Source: Escherichia coli
Lineage (GTDB): Bacteria > Pseudomonadota > Gammaproteobacteria > Enterobacterales > Enterobacteriaceae
Reading direction: 5' to 3' (one strand)
DNA: 53,508 nt
NCBI RefSeq assembly: GCF_003334335.1
Contig: NZ_QOWQ01000033.1
How positions within the stretch are numbered: the first letter of the stretch is position 1; every line of letters begins with the position of its first letter. Positions 20,876 to 42,349 of this stretch are shown one piece after another. The translations under genes were made by a program, and so were the position numbers. The notes beneath the pieces are model-generated. The model made no database searches. It worked only from the letters and a program-made list of their open reading frames with translations, and was not told the origin of the DNA.

Positions 20876-22555
20876 TTACTGCGGGTAAGGCACCCAGTCG
20901 CCGCCGTTCAGGCGAACGTACGGTTTATCCTGGTATTGAATAACTACTGCATTTGAGTTCTCGGAGACCGGTGCTGTTTGTGGCAACCCACTGGTGAGTT
21001 TTTTCCAGTCAACATTGTCTTCGGTGAAAATCTTGCCATCGAGAACGCGAACCACCAGATCGGAGATAGCCAGGAAGCTGCTCGGTTGTTCGATGACAAT
21101 CGGTGCCCCCTGATGCGGTGCCTTCATGCCGAAGAATTTCACCCCAACGGGGACGTCGGTGATAGACGGGCTAGGGATATCACGTAGGCCAGATACCTGC
21201 ATTCTGTCGCCCTTCAGCGCGCCGCCGTGTTCCGGCACCACGACCACCATCACTTTACGACCCGATTTCTCAAGTTCAGTAAAGAAGGCGTCCAGTTCAT
21301 CAAAGAATTTCTGCGCCCGCGCTTTGTAATCCGCTGTTTTGCTGACCCCCGGATAATGGTTGCCGTCATGCAGTGGAAGCGTGTTGTAGAACGTGGCACT
21401 ACGGCTGTTTTTATCTTTTTCGGTAACGTCCAGCCAGCGGTTAAGCACAGCGGTATCGTCATAAACCGGCGAACCATCAAAGCCCAGCAAAATAACCGGC
21501 AGATTTGTTTGATCCATCAATTCGCTCTGCATGCCGCCATTTTCGCGAACTTCTTTCAAAAAACCGCCGAACTGGCCGTTATGTCCCATCATCAGGTGCT
21601 GGGTAAAGCCCAGTTTCGAAAGGTTATCAAACAGATAGCAGTCGTTATTTGCCGGTTGATACAGATTAGTGTGCGAAGTCTGCCCGCAGCTGGCGCGCAG
21701 TAAACGGATCGCCGCCGGGCCACTGTAGGAGGTGGCGGAGTTAAAGTTCTTGAACTCAATATCGAAATGCGACCACAGTGGATGCGACATCAACCCGGCG
21801 GCTTCTATATCCGACCAGGAAAGCGAACAGATGTTAATCACCAGTAGTTCAAATGGCTGAGCATCAGCGGGCAGCGAAGACGGGAAGGTCGATTTACGTT
21901 TCGCCTCCGCGTTATAGAAATTATTCAGCCAGGCGTTAAGGTTCGCCGTTGTTGGCGGTGCAGTTTGTGCGGGCATATCACCCACTACCGGTGCGCCACC
22001 CGTCGCCGCAACGGTTGCCGCTGCGTTACCACCCGTCGTTGTTACAGTGGTCGTCGGTTGTCCGGCTGGCCACAAGGAGAAACTTGGTCCCGCCAGGGTA
22101 AGTACGTTCAGCCATAGCAGTATGGCAACCACAAAAACGGTAATGCGAATCCATTGTGACAGGAATAACCAGGCCACTAATAAAACAAAAATGGCCCCAA
22201 TCATCTGCCAGTTAATAAAGCGTGTGACAAGGTCGATTAAATAATCGGTACTGAACCCCGCCACCTGCGAACCCTGGCTCATTATGCTTTCCGGGCCAGG
22301 CAACCAGGTGTCATGCCAGAACAAAGCAAAGCCGATCGGCAGGGCAATCCAGTGGCGCAAGCGATGCAGGCTGTAGCGCGGAAGGGGCATCAGCAGAAAC
22401 GCGGCAAACACCAAATTGAGGAGCGGATGGAAGTTAAGATATCCCGCCCACAACAGGCCGAACTTAACCAGAAAATAGAAGTTCCAGCCGGAAAGGCCGC
22501 GCCAGTATTGCCAGAGGGAAGAAGGCATGGCGGTATTTTGCGTAAATTGAGTCAT
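20876..22555 (-). CDS. bcsG: cellulose phosphoethanolamine transferase BcsG
   Basis: 559 aa, N-terminal TM helices plus alkaline-phosphatase-superfamily periplasmic domain; ATGA overlap with bcsF. Confidence 0.93.
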
Positions 22556-22743
22556 TTTTTGGTTGCCCTGGCTTTTTCCGTGCGGCGTAACGTCCCGGCC
22601 GGTTTAACATAACGAGGTTTAGCAAAGAACAAACGTAAGGTGTCGCGAATGCGTCGCAAAGAGTGCCGCGCCAGATAGCCCAGCGGGAAAAATATCAGTG
22701 CGCAAACGACAATAATTTCAATGATATCGCTGATGGTCATCAT
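22552..22743 (-). CDS. bcsF: cellulose biosynthesis small membrane protein BcsF (63 aa)
   Basis: [31 protein letters not shown]...; single TM helix; overlaps bcsE and bcsG by 4 bp each. Confidence 0.9.
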
Positions 22744-24311
22744 GATGAGCGCTCCACAGCATCATCTAACAGTCGCATGGGTTCTGGTATTCGTCGCCAG
22801 TGGCGACCATCGTGCTCGGCATTGATGACCGGTTTAGAACTTTGCGTTAAAGGCAGCGGCATGCCCCATTGTTCTGGGGCAAGCAAGCGCATCTGCACCA
22901 GCTCGGCACTGATTTGATCATCTTCAAACCAGACCATACGGTTTGAGAAAATGTCGCCAGTAGGCAATGGGAAAATATGATTCAACGCGGTATCCAGATC
23001 GTTAATCCGACAGAATGAGAGAAACAGCACCAGCCGATTACCGCCAATGGTCATGATATCGCCGGTACGGTTAGGGCGACACAGCGTCAGGGCTTGTTCA
23101 ACGCGGATACCCGGTACCGGACGTAGGGCAACCAGAACGCCTTTACCGTGGGCAGGTAATAGAGGGTTATTCATCATGTTGTTGACGGCATTACAGAACA
23201 CATCCCACTTCTGGAAACCACGCAGTTTGAGCGGCTGGGTCATTGACAGCAAGGTAGTGATATCTTCCGGCACATAGCGACTAAACTTCTGCCCTTGCAC
23301 GCTTTCGATCATCGTCAGACAACGGGAGAGTGGCGCATTCCACGGAATAACCATATTTGCACCGCAGGCCAATAACAAACGTTCATCGGTGGCGCGCAGG
23401 CTAGCGGTATTTTCCCGCACGAGGATTTTCATCGCACTACCGCGCTGGCGACGCAGGGTATGAATGCTGCGGGCCAGTGGCTCGATTTGCGCATTTTGCT
23501 GTAAAGAAAAGACCACCGTCGCCGCCTGAGCGGTACGGGCTTCATTGAACAGGACTTCGTTATTGTTGAACAGTTGCCAGTGTTCCGATAGCGGCGGCGC
23601 ACCTTCCAGTACAGCAACATTACTCAGAATGCGTTTTTCGTCGCTGCGTGGTTGGATCTCCGCCTCTTCGCTTTGAACTAATGTCCAGATACCATTTTGT
23701 TGCTGAACGCTAAGCTGCTGACGGGCGCTGACCCCTTTTTCGTTGCACCAGAAGGCAATATCCAGCAAATGTTGGTCACCCTGAAAACGCAAACTGGCAA
23801 GACCAAAAAGTGAACGGTATTCCTCAAGCAACAATGAAAATTGTTTATCGTTATTATTTCCGGGATTAATTACCAAAAGCGAACAATGGTTTAACCTGCT
23901 CCATTTATTCATTTTATCCAACCATGAGCGAAGCCGCTCGGCAGGAATGTTTTGCCATGCGTTATTTGCGCAAACAAGAATAAAAAGGTAATTATGGGGA
24001 TCAATAGAACACTGCAAATCACGGGTCAAATAGTATAGACCTTTTTCATGATTTAGCATTGAAAATAATTTTATTTTTTCCGGCCCTTGAGAATCATCTA
24101 ATTGAAAGATTTTCGCCGGATCGCTGTCCATGCTAATGACCGCGACGTGTGCGGTTTCAGCCTGGGATGCAATTGTTTGATTCGCCAGACTGATAGCATC
24201 TTCATGGCGATCGACGTTAAACCACCAGACGCCACCTGCTGGCATATGTCGCAGCTCATCCCATAATGATGAGATACCGATAGAGAATACAGGGTCCACA
24301 ATGTCCCTCAT
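22740..24311 (-). CDS. bcsE: cellulose biosynthesis c-di-GMP-binding protein BcsE (GIL domain)
   Basis: 523 aa; RxGD motif (RTGD) seen in ...[15 protein letters not shown].... Confidence 0.93.
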
Positions 24312-24583
24312 GTCACCATTTTGTCTGATTATCAGTTTACTAGCGAAAGCTAAGAAATAAACCTACCATTGAAATTAAAACTTATCAGATTTAGCATGTG
24401 AATCAATTTAGAAGGTCACAAGACGTGTGATTTTAGTCTTTTCGTTTTTAACTTTTTCTGTTGCGTAACGGAAAGTCAAAAAGTGAGCAAATTCCCGTCT
24501 CGCCGTAAACAATAAACCGGCGAAATGCTCACGGTTAGAATTGTCTCATGAACGGTACGGTTATTTCATAGGGATCAAGCAAA

Positions 24584-24772
24584 ATGAATAACAATGAACC
24601 AGATACTCTGCCTGATCCCGCGATAGGCTATATCTTCCAGAATGATATTGTGGCGTTAAAGCAGGCATTTTCACTGCCTGATATTGATTATGCCGATATT
24701 TCCCAACGCGAACAGTTGGCCGCGGCATTAAAACGCTGGCCGTTGCTGGCAGAGTTTGCGCAACAAAAGTAG
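24584..24772 (+). CDS. bcsR: cellulose biosynthesis protein BcsR (62 aa)
   Basis: MNNNEPDTLPDPAIGYIFQNDIVALKQAFSLPDIDYADISQREQLAAALKRWPLLAEFAQQK; divergent from bcsE. Confidence 0.9.
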   Translation: MNNNEPDTLPDPAIGYIFQNDIVALKQAFSLPDIDYADISQREQLAAALKRWPLLAEFAQQK

Positions 24773-24783
24773 GGGATTGGTGA

Positions 24784-25536
24784 ATGGCCGTACTGGGATT
24801 GCAGGGGGTGCGGGGAGGCGTGGGGACAACAACCATCACCGCCGCATTAGCCTGGTCATTACAAATGTTGGGAGAAAATGTCCTGGTGGTCGATGCCTGC
24901 CCGGACAACTTGTTGCGCCTGTCATTTAATGTTGATTTTACCCACCGTCAGGGCTGGGCCAGAGCGATGCTGGATGGCCAGGACTGGCGTGACGCTGGGT
25001 TGCGCTACACCTCGCAGCTCGATTTGCTGCCTTTTGGTCAGTTATCCATTGAAGAACAAGAAAATCCACAGCACTGGCAAACCCGGCTGAGCGATATTTG
25101 CTCCGGCTTACAGCAACTAAAAGCCAGCGGGCGTTACCAGTGGATTTTAATCGACTTACCGCGTGATGCCTCGCAGATAACCCACCAGCTGCTGAGTTTG
25201 TGCGATCACTCGCTGGCAATCGTCAATGTGGATGCCAACTGCCATATCCGACTGCATCAGCAAGCGCTGCCGGATGGCGCACATATTTTGATTAATGACT
25301 TCCGTATTGGCAGTCAGGTTCAGGACGATATTTACCAGCTTTGGTTGCAAAGCCAGCGCCGATTACTGCCGATGCTCATTCATCGTGATGAAGCGATGGC
25401 TGAATGCCTGGCGGCTAAGCAACCAGTAGGTGAATATCGCAGTGATGCGCTGGCGGCTGAAGAGATACTGACGCTGGCGAACTGGTGCCTGTTGAACTAC
25501 TCCGGGCTGAAAACGCCAGTCGGGAGTGCATCATGA
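24784..25536 (+). CDS. bcsQ: cellulose biosynthesis protein BcsQ (MinD/ParA-like), uninterrupted 250-codon frame
   Basis: ATG at 24784, 12 bp after the bcsR stop; codon 6 (24799-24801) is TTG; P-loop-like GVRGGVGTTT; ATGA overlap with bcsA. Confidence 0.9.
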   Translation: MAVLGLQGVRGGVGTTTITAALAWSLQMLGENVLVVDACPDNLLRLSFNVDFTHRQGWARAMLDGQDWRDAGLRYTSQLDLLPFGQLSIEEQENPQHWQTRLSDICSGLQQLKASGRYQWILIDLPRDASQITHQLLSLCDHSLAIVNVDANCHIRLHQQALPDGAHILINDFRIGSQVQDDIYQLWLQSQRRLLPMLIHRDEAMAECLAAKQPVGEYRSDALAAEEILTLANWCLLNYSGLKTPVGSAS

Positions 25537-28151
25537 GTATCCTGACCCGGTGGTTGCTTATCCCGCCGGTCAACGCGCGGCTTATCGGGCGTTATCGCGA
25601 TTATCGTCGTCACGGTGCGTCGGCTTTCAGCGCGACGCTCGGCTGTTTCTGGATGATCCTGGCCTGGATTTTTATTCCGCTGGAGCACCCGCGCTGGCAG
25701 CGTATTCGCGCAGAACATAAAAACCTGTATCCGCATATCAACGCCTCGCGTCCGCGTCCGCTGGACCCGGTCCGTTATCTCATTCAAACATGCTGGTTAT
25801 TGATCGGTGCATCGCGCAAAGAAACGCCGAAACCGCGCAGGCGGGCATTTTCAGGTCTGCAAAATATTCGTGGACGTTACCATCAATGGATGAACGAGCT
25901 GCCTGAGCGCGTTAGCCATAAAACACAGCATCTGGATGAGAAAAAAGAGCTCGGTCATTTGAGTGCCGGGGCGCGGCGGTTGATCCTCGGTATCATCGTC
26001 ACCTTCTCGCTGATTCTGGCGTTAATCTGCGTTACTCAGCCGTTTAACCCGCTGGCGCAGTTTATCTTCCTGATGCTGCTGTGGGGGGTAGCGCTGATCG
26101 TACGGCGGATGCCGGGGCGCTTCTCGGCGCTAATGTTGATTGTGCTGTCGCTGACCGTTTCTTGCCGTTATATCTGGTGGCGTTACACCTCTACGCTGAA
26201 CTGGGACGATCCGGTCAGCCTGGTGTGCGGGCTTATTCTGCTCTTCGCTGAAACGTACGCGTGGATTGTGCTGGTGCTCGGCTACTTCCAGGTAGTATGG
26301 CCGCTGAATCGTCAGCCGGTGCCATTGCCGAAAGATATGTCGCTGTGGCCGTCGGTGGATATCTTTGTCCCGACTTACAACGAAGATCTCAACGTGGTGA
26401 AAAATACCATTTACGCCTCGCTGGGTATCGACTGGCCGAAAGATAAGCTGAATATCTGGATCCTTGATGACGGCGGCAGGGAAGAGTTTCGCCAGTTTGC
26501 GCAAAACGTGGGGGTGAAATATATCGCCCGCACCACTCATGAACATGCGAAAGCAGGCAACATCAACAATGCGCTGAAATATGCCAAAGGCGAGTTCGTG
26601 TCGATTTTCGACTGCGACCACGTACCAACGCGATCGTTCTTGCAAATGACCATGGGCTGGTTCCTGAAAGAAAAACAGCTGGCGATGATGCAGACGCCGC
26701 ACCACTTCTTCTCACCGGACCCGTTTGAACGCAACCTGGGGCGTTTCCGTAAAACGCCGAACGAAGGCACGCTGTTCTATGGTCTGGTGCAGGATGGCAA
26801 CGATATGTGGGACGCCACTTTCTTCTGCGGTTCCTGTGCGGTGATTCGTCGTAAGCCGCTGGATGAAATTGGCGGCATTGCTGTCGAAACCGTGACTGAA
26901 GATGCGCATACTTCTCTGCGGTTGCACCGTCGTGGCTATACCTCCGCGTATATGCGTATTCCGCAGGCGGCGGGGCTGGCGACCGAAAGTCTGTCGGCGC
27001 ATATCGGTCAGCGTATTCGCTGGGCGCGCGGGATGGTACAAATCTTCCGTCTCGATAACCCGCTCACCGGTAAAGGGCTGAAGTTTGCTCAGCGGCTATG
27101 TTACGTCAACGCCATGTTCCACTTCTTGTCGGGCATTCCACGGCTGATCTTCCTGACTGCGCCGCTGGCGTTCCTGCTGCTTCATGCCTACATCATCTAT
27201 GCGCCAGCGTTGATGATCGCCCTATTCGTGCTGCCGCATATGATCCATGCCAGCCTGACCAACTCCAAGATCCAGGGCAAATATCGCCACTCTTTCTGGA
27301 GTGAAATCTACGAAACGGTGCTGGCGTGGTATATCGCACCACCGACGCTGGTGGCGCTGATTAACCCGCACAAAGGCAAATTTAACGTCACCGCCAAAGG
27401 TGGACTGGTGGAAGAAGAGTACGTCGACTGGGTGATCTCGCGGCCCTACATCTTCCTTGTCCTGCTCAACCTGGTGGGCGTTGCGGTAGGCATCTGGCGC
27501 TACTTCTATGGCCCGCCAACCGAGATGCTCACCGTGGTCGTCAGTATGGTGTGGGTGTTCTACAACCTGATTGTTCTTGGCGGCGCAGTTGCGGTATCGG
27601 TAGAAAGCAAACAGGTACGCCGATCGCACCGCGTGGAGATGACGATGCCCGCGGCAATTGCCCGCGAAGATGGTCACCTCTTCTCGTGTACCGTTCAGGA
27701 TTTCTCCGACGGTGGTTTGGGGATCAAGATCAACGGTCAGGCGCAGATTCTGGAAGGGCAGAAAGTGAATCTGTTGCTTAAACGCGGTCAGCAGGAATAC
27801 GTCTTCCCGACCCAGGTGGCGCGCGTGATGGGTAATGAAGTTGGGCTGAAATTAATGCCGCTCACCACCCAGCAACATATCGATTTTGTGCAGTGTACGT
27901 TTGCCCGTGCGGATACATGGGCGCTCTGGCAGGACAGCTACCCGGAAGATAAGCCGCTGGAAAGTCTGCTGGATATTCTGAAGCTCGGCTTCCGTGGCTA
28001 CCGCCATCTGGCGGAGTTTGCGCCTTCTTCGGTGAAGGGCATATTCCGTGTGCTGACTTCTCTGGTTTCCTGGGTTGTATCGTTTATTCCGCGCCGCCCG
28101 GAGCGGAGCGAAACGGCACAACCATCGGATCAGGCTTTGGCTCAACAATGA
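25533..28151 (+). CDS. bcsA: cellulose synthase catalytic subunit BcsA (GT2 + PilZ)
   Basis: GT2 motifs (DDG, TED in VTEDAHTS, QRIRW), C-terminal PilZ motifs RRSHR and DFSDGG; ATG at 25533. Confidence 0.96.
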   Translation: MSILTRWLLIPPVNARLIGRYRDYRRHGASAFSATLGCFWMILAWIFIPLEHPRWQRIRAEHKNLYPHINASRPRPLDPVRYLIQTCWLLIGASRKETPKPRRRAFSGLQNIRGRYHQWMNELPERVSHKTQHLDEKKELGHLSAGARRLILGIIVTFSLILALICVTQPFNPLAQFIFLMLLWGVALIVRRMPGRFSALMLIVLSLTVSCRYIWWRYTSTLNWDDPVSLVCGLILLFAETYAWIVLVLGYFQVVWPLNRQPVPLPKDMSLWPSVDIFVPTYNEDLNVVKNTIYASLGIDWPKDKLNIWILDDGGREEFRQFAQNVGVKYIARTTHEHAKAGNINNALKYAKGEFVSIFDCDHVPTRSFLQMTMGWFLKEKQLAMMQTPHHFFSPDPFERNLGRFRKTPNEGTLFYGLVQDGNDMWDATFFCGSCAVIRRKPLDEIGGIAVETVTEDAHTSLRLHRRGYTSAYMRIPQAAGLATESLSAHIGQRIRWARGMVQIFRLDNPLTGKGLKFAQRLCYVNAMFHFLSGIPRLIFLTAPLAFLLLHAYIIYAPALMIALFVLPHMIHASLTNSKIQGKYRHSFWSEIYETVLAWYIAPPTLVALINPHKGKFNVTAKGGLVEEEYVDWVISRPYIFLVLLNLVGVAVGIWRYFYGPPTEMLTVVVSMVWVFYNLIVLGGAVAVSVESKQVRRSHRVEMTMPAAIAREDGHLFSCTVQDFSDGGLGIKINGQAQILEGQKVNLLLKRGQQEYVFPTQVARVMGNEVGLKLMPLTTQQHIDFVQCTFARADTWALWQDSYPEDKPLESLLDILKLGFRGYRHLAEFAPSSVKGIFRVLTSLVSWVVSFIPRRPERSETAQPSDQALAQQ

Positions 28152-28161
28152 TGATAACGCG

Positions 28162-30501
28162 ATGAAAAGAAAACTATTCTGGATTTGTGCAGTGGCTATG
28201 GGGATGAGTGCGTTCCCCTCTTTCATGACGCAGGCGACGCCAGCAACGCAACCACTGATCAATGCTGAGCCAGCTGTAGCCGCCCAGACGGAACAAAATC
28301 CGCAGGTGGGGCAAGTGATGCCGGGCGTGCAGGGCGCTGATGCGCCAGTCGTGGCGCAGAACGGTCCTTCGCGTGATGTGAAGCTGACCTTTGCGCAAAT
28401 TGCACCGCCGCCGGGCAGCATGGTGCTACGTGGCATTAACCCGAACGGCAGCATTGAGTTTGGTATGCGCAGCGATGAAGTGGTGACGAAGGCGATGCTC
28501 AACCTCGAATACACCCCATCGCCATCGTTACTGCCTGTCCAGTCGCAGTTAAAGGTTTATCTCAATGATGAACTGATGGGCGTGCTGCCAGTGACCAAAG
28601 AACAGTTGGGTAAAAAAACGCTGGCGCAAATGCCCATTAACCCACTGTTTATTACCGACTTCAACCGTGTACGGCTGGAGTTTGTCGGCCATTATCAGGA
28701 CGTGTGCGAAAACCCGGCCAGCACCACGCTTTGGCTGGATGTTGGGCGGAGCAGTGGACTGGATCTGACCTATCAGACCCTGAATGTGAAGAATGACCTG
28801 TCACACTTCCCGGTGCCATTCTTTGACCCGCGCGATAACCGCACCAACACCTTGCCGATGGTCTTTGCGGGTGCGCCGGATGTTGGGCTGCAACAAGCCT
28901 CTGCCATTGTCGCCTCGTGGTTTGGTTCGCGTTCTGGCTGGCGTGGGCAGAACTTCCCGGTACTCTATAACCAACTGCCGGATCGCAATGCCATTGTCTT
29001 TGCAACCAACGACAAACGGCCGGACTTCCTGCGCGATCATCCGGCGGTAAAAGCCCCGGTGATTGAGATGATTAACCATCCGCAGAATCCTTACGTCAAA
29101 CTGCTGGTGGTGTTTGGTCGTGACGACAAAGACCTGTTGCAGGCAGCGAAAGGTATCGCTCAGGGTAACATTCTGTTCCGTGGTGAAAGCGTGGTAGTGA
29201 ATGAAGTGAAACCGCTGCTACCGCGTAAGCCGTACGATGCGCCGAACTGGGTACGTACCGATCGTCCGGTCACATTTGGCGAACTGAAAACCTATGAAGA
29301 ACAGTTACAATCCAGCGGTCTTGAGCCAGCAGCGATTAACGTTTCGCTAAACCTGCCGCCGGATCTCTACCTGATGCGCAGTATCGGCATTGATATGGAT
29401 ATTAATTACCGCTACACCATGCCGCCGGTGAAAGACAGTTCGCGGATGGATATCAGCCTGAATAACCAGTTCCTGCAATCCTTCAACCTGAGCAGCAAAC
29501 AGGAGGCGAACCGCCTGCTGCTGCGGATTCCGGTATTACAAGGTTTGCTGGATGGCAAAACAGATGTCTCTATTCCGGCGCTGAAACTGGGCGCGACCAA
29601 CCAGCTGCGCTTCGACTTTGAGTATATGAACCCGATGCCGGGCGGTTCGGTGGATAACTGTATTACCTTCCAGCCGGTGCAGAATCATGTGGTGATTGGT
29701 GACGACTCCACCATCGACTTCTCGAAGTATTACCACTTCATCCCGATGCCGGATCTACGCGCCTTTGCTAACGCGGGCTTCCCATTCAGCCGGATGGCGG
29801 ATCTGTCGCAAACCATCACCGTGATGCCGAAAGCGCCTAACGAAGCACAGATGGAAACGTTGCTGAATACTGTTGGTTTTATCGGCGCACAGACGGGCTT
29901 CCCGGCGATTAATCTGACGGTGACCGATGATGGCAGCACCATTCAGGGCAAAGATGCCGACATCATGATCATCGGTGGTATCCCGGACAAACTGAAAGAC
30001 GATAAGCAGATCGACCTATTGGTGCAGGCGACCGAAAGCTGGGTGAAAACACCGATGCGCCAGACCCCGTTCCCCGGCATTGTGCCGGACGAGAGCGATC
30101 GCGCGGCAGAAACCCGGTCAACGCTGACCTCTTCCGGTGCGATGGCGGCGGTGATTGGCTTCCAGTCGCCGTATAACGACCAGCGCAGCGTGATTGCGTT
30201 GTTGGCAGATAGCCCACGCGGTTATGAAATGCTTAACGATGCGGTGAACGATAGCGGCAAACGCGCCACCATGTTCGGTTCGGTCGCGGTGATCCGCGAG
30301 TCCGGTATCAACAGCCTACGTGTTGGCGACGTTTATTACGTAGGTCATCTGCCGTGGTTCGAGCGCGTGTGGTATGCGCTGGCAAACCATCCGATTCTGC
30401 TGGCGGTGCTGGCGGCTATCAGTGTGATATTGCTGGCATGGGTACTGTGGCGTCTGCTGCGAATTATTAGTCGTCGTCGTCTTAACCCGGATAACGAGTA
30501 A
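28162..30501 (+). CDS. bcsB: cellulose synthase periplasmic subunit BcsB
   Basis: 779 aa starting MKRKLFWICAVAMGMSAFPSF (signal peptide) with C-terminal TM anchor; the ORF track's 28075 start overlaps the bcsA end. Confidence 0.95.
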   Translation: MKRKLFWICAVAMGMSAFPSFMTQATPATQPLINAEPAVAAQTEQNPQVGQVMPGVQGADAPVVAQNGPSRDVKLTFAQIAPPPGSMVLRGINPNGSIEFGMRSDEVVTKAMLNLEYTPSPSLLPVQSQLKVYLNDELMGVLPVTKEQLGKKTLAQMPINPLFITDFNRVRLEFVGHYQDVCENPASTTLWLDVGRSSGLDLTYQTLNVKNDLSHFPVPFFDPRDNRTNTLPMVFAGAPDVGLQQASAIVASWFGSRSGWRGQNFPVLYNQLPDRNAIVFATNDKRPDFLRDHPAVKAPVIEMINHPQNPYVKLLVVFGRDDKDLLQAAKGIAQGNILFRGESVVVNEVKPLLPRKPYDAPNWVRTDRPVTFGELKTYEEQLQSSGLEPAAINVSLNLPPDLYLMRSIGIDMDINYRYTMPPVKDSSRMDISLNNQFLQSFNLSSKQEANRLLLRIPVLQGLLDGKTDVSIPALKLGATNQLRFDFEYMNPMPGGSVDNCITFQPVQNHVVIGDDSTIDFSKYYHFIPMPDLRAFANAGFPFSRMADLSQTITVMPKAPNEAQMETLLNTVGFIGAQTGFPAINLTVTDDGSTIQGKDADIMIIGGIPDKLKDDKQIDLLVQATESWVKTPMRQTPFPGIVPDESDRAAETRSTLTSSGAMAAVIGFQSPYNDQRSVIALLADSPRGYEMLNDAVNDSGKRATMFGSVAVIRESGINSLRVGDVYYVGHLPWFERVWYALANHPILLAVLAAISVILLAWVLWRLLRIISRRRLNPDNE

Positions 30502-30507
30502 TTGAAG

Positions 30508-31614
30508 ATGAATGTGTTGCGTAGTGGAATCGTGACGATGCTGCTGCTGGCTGCCTTTAGTGTTCAGGCAGCCTGTACCTGGCCTGCCTGGGAGCAGTTT
30601 AAAAAGGATTACATCAGTCAGGAAGGGCGCGTCATCGACCCCAGCGACGCGCGCAAAATCACCACCTCCGAAGGGCAAAGTTACGGCATGTTCTCTGCCC
30701 TGGCGGCTAACGACCGTGCAGCTTTCGATAATATTCTCGACTGGACGCAGAACAATCTCGCTCAGGGTTCTTTAAAAGAACGTTTGCCCGCCTGGCTGTG
30801 GGGCAAGAAAGAGAACAGTAAGTGGGAAGTGCTGGACAGCAATTCGGCCTCCGATGGTGATGTCTGGATGGCCTGGTCGTTGCTGGAGGCGGGGCGTTTG
30901 TGGAAAGAGCAGCGTTATACCGACATCGGCAGCGCGTTGCTAAAACGTATCGCGCGGGAGGAAGTGGTGACGGTGCCTGGGCTGGGTTCCATGTTGTTAC
31001 CGGGCAAAGTGGGTTTTGCTGAGGATAACAGCTGGCGTTTTAACCCCAGCTACCTGCCGCCGACGCTGGCGCAGTATTTCACCCGCTTTGGCGCGCCGTG
31101 GACCACGCTGCGCGAAACCAATCAACGTTTATTGCTGGAAACCGCCCCGAAAGGTTTTTCGCCAGACTGGGTGCGCTATGAGAAAGACAAAGGCTGGCAG
31201 CTAAAAGCCGAAAAAACATTGATCAGCAGCTACGACGCTATCCGCGTTTACATGTGGGTAGGCATGATGCCTGACAGCGATCCGCAAAAAGCGCGGATGC
31301 TCAACCGGTTTAAACCGATGGCGACATTCACTGAGAAAAACGGTTATCCGCCGGAAAAAGTGGATGTGGCTACGGGGAAAGCGCAGGGTAAAGGACCAGT
31401 CGGTTTTTCTGCCGCCATGCTGCCCTTTTTACAAAACCGCGATGCGCAGGCCGTTCAGCGCCAGCGCGTGGCCGATAACTTTCCCGGCAGCGATGCCTAT
31501 TACAACTATGTGCTGACCCTGTTTGGACAAGGCTGGGATCAACACCGTTTCCGCTTCTCGACAAAAGGTGAGTTATTACCTGACTGGGGCCAGGAATGCG
31601 CAAATTCACACTAA
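30508..31614 (+). CDS. bcsZ: endo-1,4-beta-glucanase BcsZ (glycoside hydrolase family 8)
   Basis: 368 aa with signal peptide ([21 protein letters not shown]) and GH8-like segment [12 protein letters not shown]. Confidence 0.95.
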
Positions 31615-34600
31615 ACATATTCACGCTTTCCCTCGGTCTGGCCGTCATGCCGATGGTCGAGGCAGCACCAACCGCTCAGCAACAGTTGCTGGAGCAAGTT
31701 CGGTTAGGCGAAGCGACCCATCGTGAAGATCTGGTGCAACAGTCGTTATATCGGCTGGAACTTATTGATCCGAATAACCCGGACGTCGTTGCCGCCCGTT
31801 TCCGTTCTTTGTTACGTCAGGGCGATATTGATGGCGCGCAAAAACAGCTCGATCGGCTGTCGCAGTTAGCGCCGAGTTCAAATGCGTATAAATCGTCGCG
31901 GACTACGATGCTACTTTCCACGCCGGATGGTCGTCAGGCACTGCAACAGGCACGATTGCAGGCGACGACCGGTCATGCAGAAGAAGCTGTGGCGAGTTAC
32001 AACAAACTGTTCAACGGTGCGCCGCCGGAAGGTGACATTGCTGTCGAGTACTGGAGTACGGTGGCGAAAATTCCGGCTCGCCGTGGCGAAGCGATTAATC
32101 AGTTAAAACGCATCAATGCGGATGCACCGGGCAATACGGGCCTGCAAAACAATCTGGCGCTATTGCTGTTTAGTAGCGATCGCCGTGACGAAGGTTTTGC
32201 CGTCCTGGAACAGATGGCAAAATCGAACGCCGGGCGCGAAGGGGCCTCTAAAATCTGGTACGGGCAGATTAAAGACATGCCCGTCAGTGATGCCAGTGTG
32301 TCGGCGCTGAAAAAATATCTCTCGATCTTTAGTGATGGCGATAGCGTGGCGGCTGCGCAATCGCAACTGGCAGAACAGCAAAAACAGCTGGCCGATCCTG
32401 CTTTCCGCGCTCGTGCGCAAGGTTTAGCGGCGGTGGACTCTGGTATGGCGGGTAAAGCCATTCCCGAACTACAACAGGCGGTGCGGGCGAACCCGAAAGA
32501 CAGTGAAGCTCTGGGGGCGCTGGGCCAGGCGTATTCTCAGAAAGGCGATCGCGCCAATGCAGTGGCGAATCTGGAAAAAGCCCTCGCACTGGACCCGCAC
32601 AGCAGCAACAACGACAAATGGAACAGTCTGCTGAAAGTAAACCGCTACTGGCTGGCGATCCAGCAGGGCGATGCTGCGCTGAAAGCCAATAATCCTGACC
32701 GGGCAGAACGCCTGTTCCAGCAGGCGCGTAATGTCGATAACACCGACAGTTATGCCGTGCTGGGGCTGGGCGATGTGGCGATGGCGCGAAAAGATTATCC
32801 CGCCGCCGAACGTTATTATCAGCAGACCTTGCGTATGGACAGCGGCAACACTAACGCCGTGCGCGGGCTGGCAAATATTTACCGCCAGCAATCGCCAGAA
32901 AAAGCTGAAGCGTTTATCGCCTCGCTCTCTGCCAGTCAGCGGCGTAGCATTGATGATATCGAACGCAGCCTGCAAAACGACCGTCTGGCACAGCAGGCAG
33001 AGGCACTGGAAAACCAGGGCAAATGGGCGCAGGCGGCAGCACTTCAGCGGCAACGACTGGCGCTGGACCCCGGCAGCGTATGGATTACTTACCGACTTTC
33101 GCAGGATCTCTGGCAGGCCGGACAACGCAGCCAGGCCGATACGTTAATGCGCAATCTGGCGCAGCAGAAGTCGAACGACCCGGAGCAGGTTTACGCTTAC
33201 GGGCTGTACCTCTCTGGTCATGACCAGGACAGAGCGGCGCTGGCGCATATCAACAGCCTGCCGCGTGCGCAGTGGAACAGCAATATTCAGGAGCTGGTTA
33301 ATCGACTGCAAAGCGATCAGGTGCTGGAAACCGCTAACCGCCTGCGAGAAAGCGGCAAAGAGGCAGAAGCGGAAGCGATGCTGCGCCAGCAACCACCTTC
33401 CACGCGTATTGACCTCACGCTGGCTGACTGGGCGCAACAACGACGTGATTACACCGCCGCCCGCGCTGCATATCAGAATGTCCTGACGCGGGAGCCAGCT
33501 AACGCCGACGCCATTCTTGGTCTGACGGAAGTGGATATTGCTGCCGGTGACAAAGCGGCGGCACGTAGCCAGCTGGCGAAACTGCCCGCTACCGATAACG
33601 CCTCGCTGAACACACAGCGGCGCGTGGCGCTGGCACAGGCGCAGCTTGGCGATACCGCAGCAGCGCAGCGGACGTTTAATAAGTTGATCCCGCAGGCAAA
33701 ATCTCAGCCACCGTCGATGGAAAGCGCGATGGTGCTGCGTGATGGTGCGAAGTTTGAAGCGCAGGCGGGCGATCCAACGCAGGCGCTGGAAACCTACAAA
33801 GACGCCATGGTCGCATCCGGTGTGACTACGACGCGTCCGCAGGATAACGACACCTTTACCCGACTGACCCGTAACGACGAGAAAGATGACTGGCTGAAAC
33901 GTGGCGTGCGCAGCGATGCGGCGGACCTCTATCGCCAGCAGGATCTTAACGTCACCCTTGAGCACGATTACTGGGGTTCGAGCGGCACCGGTGGTTACTC
34001 CGATCTGAAAGCGCACACTACCATGTTGCAGGTGGATGCGCCGTATTCTGACGGGCGGATGTTCTTTCGCAGTGATTTCGTCAATATGAACGTCGGCAGT
34101 TTCTCCACTAATGCCGATGGCAAATGGGATGACAACTGGGGCACCTGTACATTACAGGACTGTAGCGGCAACCGCAGCCAGTCGGATTCCGGTGCCAGCG
34201 TGGCGGTCGGCTGGCGAAATGACGTCTGGAGCTGGGATATCGGTACCACGCCGATGGGCTTCAACGTGGTGGATGTGGTCGGCGGCATCAGTTACAGCGA
34301 TGATATCGGGCCGCTGGGTTACACCGTTAACGCCCACCGTCGGCCCATCTCCAGTTCTTTGCTGGCCTTTGGTGGGCAAAAAGACTCCCCGAGCAATACC
34401 GGGAAAAAATGGGGTGGCGTACGTGCCGACGGTGTGGGGCTAAGTCTGAGCTACGATAAAGGTGAAGCAAACGGCGTCTGGGCATCGCTTAGTGGCGACC
34501 AGTTAACCGGTAAAAATGTCGAAGATAACTGGCGCGTGCGCTGGATGACGGGCTATTACTATAAGGTCATTAACCAGAACAATCGCCGCGTCACAATCGG

Positions 34601-35069
34601 CCTGAACAACATGATCTGGCATTACGACAAAGATCTGAGTGGCTACTCACTCGGTCAGGGCGGTTACTACAGTCCGCAGGAATACCTGTCGTTTGCCATA
34701 CCGGTGATGTGGCGGGAGCGCACGGAAAACTGGTCGTGGGAGCTGGGTGCGTCTGGCTCGTGGTCGCATTCACGCACCAAAACCATGCCGCGTTATCCGC
34801 TGATGAATCTGATCCCGACCGACTGGCAGGAAGAAGCTGCGCGGCAATCCAACGATGGCGGCAGCAGTCAGGGCTTCGGCTACACGGCGCGGGCATTACT
34901 TGAACGACGTGTTACTTCCAACTGGTTTGTTGGCACGGCAATTGATATCCAGCAGGCGAAAGATTACGCACCCAGCCATTTCCTGCTCTACGTACGTTAT
35001 TCCGCCGCCGGATGGCAGGGTGACATGGATTTACCGCCGCAGCCGCTGATACCTTACGCCGACTGGTAA
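31596..35069 (+). CDS. bcsC: cellulose synthase outer-membrane subunit BcsC (TPR repeats + C-terminal beta-barrel)
   Basis: 1157 aa; signal peptide, long Ala/Leu/Gln-rich TPR region, Gly/Tyr/Trp-rich C-terminal barrel; start overlaps the bcsZ 3' end by 19 bp. Confidence 0.95.
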
Positions 35070-35150
35070 GTTTTCAGATAGCGCCTCTCTTAATGCCGCT
35101 GCGATCGGGTATACTCGGGCGGCAATCTGGGATTTCCGGGGGGAGACAAT

Positions 35151-37139
35151 TTGCGCGTAAGTCGCTCGTTAACAATCAAGCAGATGGCAATGGTGGCAGC
35201 CGTTGTCCTGGTGTTCGTTTTTATTTTTTGCACCGTTTTGCTGTTCCATCTGGTCCAGCAGAATCGCTATAACACGGCTACGCAACTGGAAAGCATTGCT
35301 CGCTCTGTCCGCGAACCCTTATCTTCAGCTATTTTGAAAGGCGATATTCCCGAAGCGGAAGCTATTCTTGCCAGCATTAAACCGGCAGGCGTGGTCAGCC
35401 GTGCCGATGTAGTGCTGCCTAACCAGTTCCAGGCGCTGCGTAAAAGTTTTATTCCAGAGCGCCCGGTGCCGGTAATGGTTACTCGCCTGTTTGAGCTACC
35501 GGTTCAAATCTCGCTGGGCGTTTACTCGCTCGAACGTCCGGCAAACCCGCAGCCAATTGCCTATCTGGTACTACAGGCGGATTCCTTCCGTATGTATAAG
35601 TTCGTGATGAGCACCCTCTCAACGTTAGTGACCATTTACTTACTTTTGTCGCTTATCCTGACCGTCGCCATCAGCTGGTGCATTAACCGCCTGATTTTGC
35701 ATCCGTTACGCAATATTGCTCGCGAACTTAACGCCATCCCAGCCAAGGAGCTTGTTGGTCACCAACTGGCATTACCGCGTCTGCATCAGGACGATGAAAT
35801 CGGTATGTTGGTGCGCAGTTACAACCTCAACCAGCAATTGCTGCAGCGCCATTATGAAGAACAGAACGAAAATGCGATGCGCTTCCCGGTGTCGGATTTG
35901 CCGAACAAAGCCTTGCTGATGGAGATGCTGGAGCAGGTTGTCGCGCGTAAACAAACCACCGCGCTGATGATCATCACCTGTGAAACCCTGCGTGATACTG
36001 CGGGCGTGCTGAAAGAGGCGCAACGAGAAATTCTGCTGCTGACGCTGGTGGAAAAACTCAAATCGGTACTGTCGCCACGTATGATCCTCGCGCAGATTAG
36101 CGGTTATGACTTTGCTGTCATTGCCAACGGTGTACAGGAACCGTGGCACGCAATCACCTTAGGTCAGCAAGTGCTCACTATCATGAGCGAGCGCCTGCCG
36201 ATTGAACGTATTCAACTCCGTCCGCACTGTAGCATTGGCGTGGCGATGTTCTACGGCGATCTCACCGCCGAACAGCTTTACAGTCGCGCTATTTCTGCGG
36301 CATTTACCGCTCGCCATAAAGGCAAGAATCAGATTCAGTTCTTTGATCCGCAGCAGATGGAAGCCGCCCAGAAGCGGTTGACGGAAGAGAGCGATATCCT
36401 TAATGCACTGGAAAATCATCAGTTTGCTATTTGGTTACAGCCACAGGTCGAGATGACCAGCGGTAAACTGGTCAGTGCGGAAGTGTTACTGCGTATCCAG
36501 CAACCGGATGGCAGTTGGGACCTGCCGGATGGCTTAATCGATCGCATTGAGTGCTGTGGGCTGATGGTTACCGTCGGTCACTGGGTGCTGGAAGAGTCCT
36601 GTCGATTGCTTGCAGCCTGGCAAGAGCGCGGCATTATGCTGCCCTTGTCGGTAAACCTCTCTGCGCTGCAACTGATGCACCCGAATATGGTGGCGGATAT
36701 GCTGGAACTGTTAACCCGCTATCGCATTCAGCCGGGAACACTGATTCTGGAAGTGACAGAAAGCCGACGTATTGACGACCCTCATGCTGCGGTGGCAATC
36801 CTCCGTCCGCTGCGCAATGCCGGAGTTCGGGTGGCGCTGGATGATTTCGGCATGGGCTACGCAGGGCTGCGTCAGCTGCAGCATATGAAATCGTTGCCAA
36901 TCGACGTACTGAAAATCGACAAAATGTTTGTTGAAGGCTTGCCGGGAGATAGCAGCATGATTGCTGCAATTATCATGCTGGCGCAGAGCCTGAACTTACA
37001 AATGATTGCCGAAGGCGTGGAGACTGAAGCACAACGCGACTGGCTGGCAAAAGCGGGCGTTGGTATTGCCCAGGGCTTCCTTTTTGCTCGCCCACTCCCT
37101 ATTGAAATCTTCGAAGAGAGTTACCTGGAAGAAAAGTAG
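35151..37139 (+). CDS. pdeK: c-di-GMP phosphodiesterase PdeK (membrane sensor, degenerate GGDEF + EAL)
   Basis: N-terminal TM/periplasmic region, degenerate GGDEF position (SGYDF), EAL domain (EVLLR...[10 protein letters not shown]); the listed start is TTG, alternative ATG at 35184. Confidence 0.9.
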
Positions 37140-37285
37140 CTACCCCAAACTGATTACAAAACTTTAAAAAGTGCTGGTTTGTGCGAGCCAGCTCAAACTT
37201 TTTAACCTTTTTGTTTCAATTATGATCCAGGTACATTTCTGTGATGTTGTCTGGGTGTTATTTTAAGGCCGCAGGTACCCCATAA

Positions 37286-38608
<1,323 letters not shown>

Positions 38609-41581: not shown

Positions 41582-42349
41582 ATGATAAGGCAGGTTATCC
41601 AGCGAATAAGCAACCCTGAAGCAAGCATCGAGAGCTTGCAGGAACGGCGTTTTTGGTTGCAGTGTGAGCGTGCTTACACCTGGCAGCCGATCTATCAAAC
41701 ATGCGGGCGGTTAATGGCCGTGGAGCTATTAACGGTGGTCACGCATCCCTTGAACCCTTCGCAACGCCTGCCGCCGGATCGCTATTTTACTGAAATCACC
41801 GTCAGCCATCGGATGGAGGTTGTGAAAGAGCAGATTGATTTGCTGGCGCAAAAAGCCGACTTCTTTATAGAGCACGGCCTGCTGGCATCGGTCAATATTG
41901 ATGGCCCTACGCTCATCGCCCTGCGTCAGCAACCAAAAATCCTGCGCCAGATTGAGCGTCTTCCCTGGCTGCGTTTCGAACTGGTGGAGCATATCCGTCT
42001 GCCGAAAGATTCAACCTTTGCCTCGATGTGTGAATTTGGCCCGCTGTGGCTGGATGATTTTGGTACCGGGATGGCAAATTTCTCTGCGCTAAGTGAAGTG
42101 CGTTATGACTACATCAAAATCGCGCGAGAACTGTTTGTGATGCTGCGTCAGTCGCCGGAAGGACGCACACTCTTTTCTCAGCTTTTACATCTAATGAATC
42201 GCTATTGTCGCGGGGTGATTGTCGAGGGCGTAGAAACGCCGGAAGAGTGGCGTGATGTTCAGAACTCGCCCGCATTCGCCGCACAAGGCTGGTTTCTTTC
42301 ACGCCCGGCACCGATAGAAACGCTGAATACGGCGGTTCTGGCGCTATAA
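41582..42349 (+). CDS. pdeH: c-di-GMP phosphodiesterase PdeH (EAL-only, 255 aa)
   Basis: MIRQVIQRISNPEASIESLQERRFWLQCE...; EAL-type ELL motif in MAVELLTVV; DDFGTGMANF. Confidence 0.93.
   Translation: MIRQVIQRISNPEASIESLQERRFWLQCERAYTWQPIYQTCGRLMAVELLTVVTHPLNPSQRLPPDRYFTEITVSHRMEVVKEQIDLLAQKADFFIEHGLLASVNIDGPTLIALRQQPKILRQIERLPWLRFELVEHIRLPKDSTFASMCEFGPLWLDDFGTGMANFSALSEVRYDYIKIARELFVMLRQSPEGRTLFSQLLHLMNRYCRGVIVEGVETPEEWRDVQNSPAFAAQGWFLSRPAPIETLNTAVLAL

Follow-up and report, generated by a model that had tools for sequence, protein, structure and literature searches.

An intact type II bcs cellulose locus with an uninterrupted bcsQ gene in an Escherichia coli strain closely related to K-12

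Cellulose secretion systems have been described as type I (Komagataeibacter-like, with bcsD), type II (E. coli-like) and type III (Agrobacterium- or Rhodobacter-like). Within type II, the closest described systems to the locus presented here are those of E. coli 1094, for which structures of the macrocomplex are available (6yg8, 6ybb, 6ybu, 9fmv, 9fnn), of K-12 MG1655 and W3110, which carry an amber codon in bcsQ and are cellulose-negative, and of AR3110. The latter is W3110 in which codon 6 of bcsQ, the TAG responsible for the loss of cellulose in K-12, was repaired to TTG, restoring cellulose (PMC7397504, PMC5944007), and its product is cellulose modified with phosphoethanolamine (pEtN-cellulose) (PMC7397504). 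Here, we describe the bcs locus located at positions 20876-35069 of a 53,508 bp stretch of E. coli DNA (NCBI RefSeq assembly GCF_003334335.1, contig NZ_QOWQ01000033.1), the whole of which is referred to as the window. The locus is, with a high degree of confidence, a core-genome chromosomal type II (E. coli-like) cellulose secretion locus in its undamaged wild-type form, from a strain near K-12. A preliminary description of the same DNA had proposed a complete type II bcs locus, representing a described rather than a novel system, and this was borne out: the nine genes, their motifs and their families were all confirmed, and the system has already been published.

Nine open reading frames (ORFs), all intact, were found across 20876-35069 and formed two divergent operons, a minus-strand bcsEFG and a plus-strand bcsRQABZC. 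On the minus strand were bcsG (20876-22555; 559 amino acids), encoding a membrane-anchored periplasmic phosphoethanolamine transferase, bcsF (22552-22743; 63 amino acids), encoding a small single-pass membrane protein, and bcsE (22740-24311; 523 amino acids), encoding a cytosolic second sensor of cyclic dimeric GMP (c-di-GMP) with a GIL/degenerate GGDEF domain. The 272-bp stretch that separates the divergent genes bcsE and bcsR (24312-24583) presumably holds the promoters for both operons. The plus-strand operon comprised bcsR (yhjR; 24584-24772; 62 amino acids), the product of which is the partner and stabilizer of BcsQ; bcsQ (24784-25536; 250 amino acids), an intact gene for a SIMIBI/MinD-type ATPase; bcsA (25533-28151; 872 amino acids), encoding the GT2 cellulose synthase of the inner membrane, the C-terminal part of which is a PilZ receptor for c-di-GMP; bcsB (28162-30501; 779 amino acids), encoding the co-catalytic subunit, a tail-anchored periplasmic protein that assembles into a hexameric crown; bcsZ (30508-31614; 368 amino acids), encoding a periplasmic GH8 endoglucanase; and bcsC (31596-35069; 1157 amino acids), encoding a periplasmic TPR scaffold with a C-terminal outer-membrane beta-barrel porin. 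The starts of bcsA, bcsB and bcsZ were taken as the annotated ATG of identical genomes, the mechanical ORF list containing longer versions that begin with GTG or TTG.

All nine ORFs begin with ATG, end with a stop codon, have lengths that are multiples of three and are free of internal stop codons, and the earlier claim that both divergent operons were present without frameshifts was thus upheld. The boundaries given in the preliminary description were also exact: the minus-strand bcsG has the last base of its stop codon at 20876, and the stop codon of bcsC ends at 35069. The same description had the genes joined by 4-bp overlaps, which held for only three of the seven junctions; overlaps of 4 bp of the ATGA type were found at bcsG/F, bcsF/E and bcsQ/A, while the bcsZ/C overlap is 19 bp long and the remaining junctions are spacers of 11 bp (bcsR/Q), 10 bp (bcsA/B) and 6 bp (bcsB/Z).

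The organization of the locus was that of a type II system: bcsA and bcsB were adjacent and intact, the divergent bcsEFG operon lay 272 bp from bcsR, and bcsR, bcsQ, bcsZ and bcsC were all present. The BcsA-BcsB core and PilZ-mediated activation by c-di-GMP are common to types I and III, and BcsA of R. sphaeroides (4hg6/4p00) aligned over residues 155-731. However, bcsE, bcsF and bcsG, which define type II systems and the pEtN modification, set the window apart from both of these types, and none of the 43 features annotated in the matching 50-kb region was bcsD. The macrocomplex of E. coli 1094 is likewise of type II and contains BcsRQABEFG and BcsC; its subunits match those of the window end to end, except for BcsB, which is considered below. 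AR3110 resembled the window in gene order, in intergenic sequence and in the amino acid sequences of BcsG, BcsF, BcsE, BcsR, BcsQ, BcsA, BcsZ and BcsC, and differed from it in BcsB and by four synonymous substitutions (one in bcsE, one in bcsB and two in bcsC).

Family and domain searches were performed on the predicted proteins. All nine Bcs proteins scored above the curated cut-offs of NCBIfam equivalog models, with E-values from 1e-21 to 0, and chance matching is therefore not an issue. Domain searches of the kind proposed in the preliminary description returned Pfam matches to GT2, PilZ, BcsE/GIL, BcsB, BcsG, GH8, TPR and BCSC_C. BcsA scored 1794 bits with NF008558 (cut-off 992) and contained GT2 at residues 277-447 (E = 1e-23) and PilZ (PF07238) at 694-790 (E = 2e-14). 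The D,D,D,QxxRW signature of GT2 enzymes was complete, with DDG at 312-314, DCD at 360-362, TED at 455-457 and QRIRW at 493-497, and FFCGS was located at 430-434; the RxxxR and DxSxxG motifs of the PilZ domain were present as RRSHR (696-700) and DFSDGG (723-728). BcsE scored 1190 bits with NF011619 (cut-off 929) and matched PF10995 across its full length (E = 2e-227), and its I-site RxGD motif was found as R415-T-G-D418, the crystal structure showing contacts of R415 and D418 with c-di-GMP (PMC7439463). The four BcsA motifs TED, QRIRW, RRSHR and DFSDGG and the RTGD motif of BcsE, all reported from the first inspection of the sequence, were therefore each placed within their protein.

The remaining subunits were equally well assigned: BcsB (NF008325, 1384 bits, cut-off 922; PF03170, E = 4e-223), BcsF (TIGR03493, 116 bits, cut-off 56), BcsR (NF040717, 75 bits, cut-off 46), BcsQ (NF007460, 543 bits, cut-off 399), BcsZ (NF008305, 591 bits, cut-off 299; GH8 PF01270, E = 6e-162; E55 and D243 in place) and BcsC (NF008520, 2199 bits, cut-off 858; several TPR matches and BCSC_C at 802-1136, E = 4e-120). 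Every large Bcs subunit searched had a solved E. coli Bcs structure with an identical or near-identical chain, with matches to 9fmv, 9b8v and 7lby for BcsA, to 9fnn, 6tj0 and 6ybb for BcsE, and to 6ybu and 6yar over residues 1-250 for BcsQ.

BcsG scored 817 bits with TIGR03368 (cut-off 410) and matched PF11658 (CBP_BcsG; E = 5e-236). Residues C243, Y277, S278, H396, E442, H443 and R458 were all in place, among which C243, H396, E442 and H443 are presumably those of the metal site. The protein matched the E. coli BcsG structures 9b8v, 9fmv and 6pcz (catalytic domain), and also 5ojh; the nucleophile of the enzyme is Ser278 (PMC11379886). An alkaline-phosphatase-like domain had been noted in BcsG at the outset. 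No sulfatase or alkaline phosphatase family was returned by the Pfam search, which gave PF11658 only, and the domain was thus not recovered as a separate match; the kinship of fold does stand, through the matched solved structures and published work (PMC11379886), and the membership of the protein in the BcsG family is unaffected.

To place the strain, the window was compared with K-12. The whole 53.5-kb window was collinear with K-12 MG1655, from which it differed by 13 single-nucleotide polymorphisms (SNPs) and one 168-bp deletion; the bcs locus itself had 99.94% nucleotide identity with MG1655/W3110, with the same flanking genes. The decisive difference was at 24800, which is T in the window and A in MG1655, so that codon 6 of bcsQ (24799-24801) is TTG (Leu) as opposed to the TAG stop. 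bcsQ is annotated as a pseudogene in MG1655, whereas in the window it runs for its full 250 amino acids, and the leucine in place of amber at codon 6 is the sole change in BcsQ. BcsG, BcsF, BcsE, BcsR, BcsA, BcsZ and BcsC were identical to those of K-12 in amino acid sequence, the bcsE-bcsR intergenic region was identical, and both nucleotide differences in bcsC were synonymous. The start of the window lies in IS150 (~1-304), beside hokA (337-489), an insertion common to K-12. Considering the 13 SNPs over 53.5 kb, the collinearity and the shared IS150, the strain behind the window is therefore, as judged from its DNA, a very close relative of K-12 that keeps a predicted functional allele of bcsQ.

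The distribution of the locus was assessed by megablast against complete E. coli genomes. Matches were found in 5425 of 5426 genomes, with at least 80% coverage in 5286, and the annotation throughout was bcsGFE/bcsRQABZC. The best matches were displayed at 100.0%, yet exact identity was rejected, the figure being the result of rounding; by direct comparison the closest genomes differ from the locus at 4 of 14194 bases. In approximately 140 complete genomes the coverage of the locus falls below 80%, owing, for instance, to truncations or insertions. Separately, 135 of 5590 matches to the locus in E. coli genomes were located on plasmids, which agrees with a 2025 preprint on horizontally transferred E. 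coli bcs clusters (10.1101/2025.05.09.653004).

BcsB was the only subunit, other than BcsQ, to differ in amino acid sequence from that of K-12. In comparison with the K-12 protein (PDB 7lby) it carried S165T, K184N, S224R and T408I (K-12 residue first), and in comparison with that of strain 1094 (PDB 6yg8) it carried T408I and L736V (1094 residue first); AR3110 differs from the window at the same four positions as K-12. At residues 165, 184 and 224 the window (T, N and R) agrees with strain 1094, and K-12 (S, K and S) stands apart. The changes at these three residues look K-12-specific, although this comparison involves one reference strain (1094) and does not fix their polarity, and the bcsB changes on the K-12 side are compatible with relaxed constraint after the knockout of bcsQ. 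The corresponding positions (28655, 28713 and 28831) are three non-synonymous transversions with respect to MG1655 that fall within 177 bp.

T408I is peculiar to the window. At 29384, codon 408 is ATC rather than the ACC of other genomes, giving isoleucine where strain 1094 and K-12 have threonine, and none of the 5426 complete E. coli genomes contained an exact match to a 57-mer centred on this base, with 56 of 57 bases matched at best. Conservation was judged on 119 full-length representatives of clusters at 50% identity, as the top 120 homologue rows, mostly Citrobacter at 85% identity, were too shallow. E. coli, Shigella and several species of Citrobacter have threonine at residue 408 and C. 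koseri has asparagine; the cluster representatives have K, R, Q, S, A, E or Y. The neighbouring residues P399, P400, D401, G409, Y416, R417 and Y418 are strongly conserved, and position 408 is among the least conserved nearby. Residue numbers for the luminal loops of BcsB domain D3 were not given in the text of PMC7840130 and PMC8892547. From the alignment, site 408 is variable and mostly polar, and isoleucine is unusual there yet unlikely to be disabling.

Locus-level competence for pEtN-cellulose is well supported, since the Bcs proteins equal alleles with demonstrated function, and the preliminary description, which had predicted such competence, is supported at this level by proteins equal or near to those alleles. 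Three points weigh against so simple a reading. The activating inputs csgD, dgcC and rpoS are encoded outside the window, and production also needs c-di-GMP from DgcC by way of the RpoS/MlrA/CsgD cascade (PMC7397504). Two phylogroup A strains, BL21 and H10407, produce no detectable cellulose even though their bcs genes are uninterrupted (PMC5944007). Finally, BcsB carries T408I, an allele without exact match in the 5426 complete genomes.

These points are the substance of the strongest alternative, that in this strain an intact locus is silent or attenuated, either through T408I or through lesions elsewhere (the csgD promoter, rpoS or dgcC), as in other phylogroup A strains. The rarity of isoleucine at a mostly polar site and the precedent of BL21 and H10407 speak for it, as does the recurrent attenuation of cellulose production documented for lineages of extraintestinal pathogenic E. 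coli (PMC10881479). However, residue 408 is poorly conserved, the remaining residues match alleles of demonstrated function and nothing in the window suggests a regulatory defect; a silent or attenuated locus is consequently considered improbable, although it is the alternative to be taken most seriously. Expression and activity of the bcs locus in this strain are inferred.

T408I is one of six substitutions lacking in both of the nearest relatives, FORC 064 and K-12 (10315, 24234, 29384, 30199, 32756 and 53042). Four are in the bcs locus; with the exception of T408I these are synonymous, affecting G26 of bcsE (24234), L680 of bcsB (30199) and A387 of bcsC (32756). The locus makes up 26.5% of the window, and the binomial probability of four of the six private SNPs falling within it is 0.046, a post hoc value. 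Of all 13 differences from K-12, nine were in bcs (p = 0.0016) and five in bcsB alone (p = 0.00015). The six private substitutions could be real variants, sequencing errors or weak chance clustering. It is conceivable that the private SNPs in bcs, including T408I, reflect recent selection on cellulose output, with T408I, in the periplasmic part of BcsB, acting through the packing of the crown or the guidance of the polymer, and with the K-12 BcsB trio and the bcsQ amber codon as a parallel, but this is regarded as very doubtful. The private SNPs are the sole items without precedent, and are minor curiosities and not a new system; at the protein level, only BcsB T408I lacks precedent in the databases searched, and its position is poorly conserved.

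Two further alternatives fared worse. Unmodified cellulose would be made in place of pEtN-cellulose if the BcsEFG module were non-functional, as the modification needs the activity of BcsG, promoted by BcsE and BcsF (PMC7397504). Nothing specific favours this, while BcsG, BcsF and BcsE are identical to those of K-12, with which AR3110 makes pEtN-cellulose (PMC7397504), and S278, C243, E442, H443 and H396 are all in place; we consider it highly unlikely. The window is near-identical to MG1655 (13 SNPs in 53.5 kb, the same IS150 beside hokA) and might have been thought to carry a K-12-type pseudogenized locus, with a bcsQ amber codon polar on bcsA, overlooked on first inspection, but the TTG at 24799-24801 and the full ORF of 250 amino acids leave this next to no probability, and the sequence itself refutes it.

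The undamaged wild-type locus would be expected to function in the manner worked out for identical E. coli Bcs proteins (PMC11470070, PMC11379886, PMC7439463, PMC8892547). In this scheme, the binding of c-di-GMP to the PilZ domain of BcsA would lead to the polymerization of UDP-glucose to beta-1,4-glucan, which BcsA would move across the inner membrane, with BcsB forming the hexameric periplasmic crown. BcsR and BcsQ would act as essential cytosolic partners that assemble on the synthase and activate it, and BcsE, the second c-di-GMP sensor, would be tethered by a BcsF dimer and hold BcsRQ at the synthase; BcsF is known to bring BcsE to the membrane (PMC11470070). A BcsG trimer is expected to dock on BcsA and to transfer phosphoethanolamine from phosphatidylethanolamine to Ser278 and thence to the C6 hydroxyl of glucose in the nascent chain. 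BcsZ would trim the glucan by hydrolysis, a step probably needed for efficient secretion, and BcsC would provide the TPR path over the periplasm and the outer-membrane pore for the polymer.

Downstream of the locus, and beyond the coordinates covered by the preliminary description, is pdeK (hmsP/yhjK; 35151-37139, plus strand), which encodes a membrane c-di-GMP phosphodiesterase and is annotated hmsP/pdeK in identical genomes. The gene has a TTG start 81 bp past bcsC, the scan gave no terminator-like site between the two, and the product is identical to that of K-12. PdeK is reported to bind BcsB and to counter DgcC as a local sink for c-di-GMP (PMC7397504), and pdeK belongs functionally with the bcs locus. 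A second c-di-GMP phosphodiesterase gene, pdeH, is located further downstream (41582-42349). A consensus promoter scan of 20400-37400 gave 8 sites, against 12.4 expected from shuffled sequence, and no promoter was assigned; a terminator scan of the same interval gave 21 sites, against 19.8 expected, and no regulatory site is claimed. At gathering thresholds, no Rfam RNA family was found within the bcs locus, with rdlD only adjoining it. This antisense RNA (20568-20633, minus strand; Rfam 87 bits) and ldrD (20682-20789, plus strand) constitute a type I toxin-antitoxin system directly beside bcsG, and a strong GC-rich hairpin of 11 pairs (20839-20866) lies between the convergent ends of ldrD and bcsG.

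Other features of the window were also recorded. eptB (10462-12153), encoding Kdo2-lipid A phosphoethanolamine transferase, lies ~9 kb from bcsG and provides a second phosphoethanolamine-transferring enzyme in the window. At 12303-12410 the window is without 168 bp found in K-12 and FORC 064, the deletion having occurred between two 108-bp direct repeats. The site is in a REP (repetitive extragenic palindromic)/naRNA4 region between the tRNA-Pro gene proK (12245-12318) and dppA, and strain 300709 also has the short form. Tandem Repeats Finder detected nothing in 12000-13300 of the window or in FORC 064; the longer allele has fewer than two copies, and the difference was visible only by BLAST. 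Near the start of the window is cspA with its 5' thermoregulator (621-1048; Rfam RF01766, 500 bits), named cspE by the Prokaryotic Genome Annotation Pipeline in FORC 064 and cspA in MG1655.

The type II layout, the motifs and the polymorphism between K-12 and wild-type bcsQ are all already known, and the finding, while correct, is ordinary; its value is mainly for annotation and is small as discovery. For the organism it means that, unlike laboratory K-12, the strain should be able to build a biofilm matrix of pEtN-cellulose and curli.

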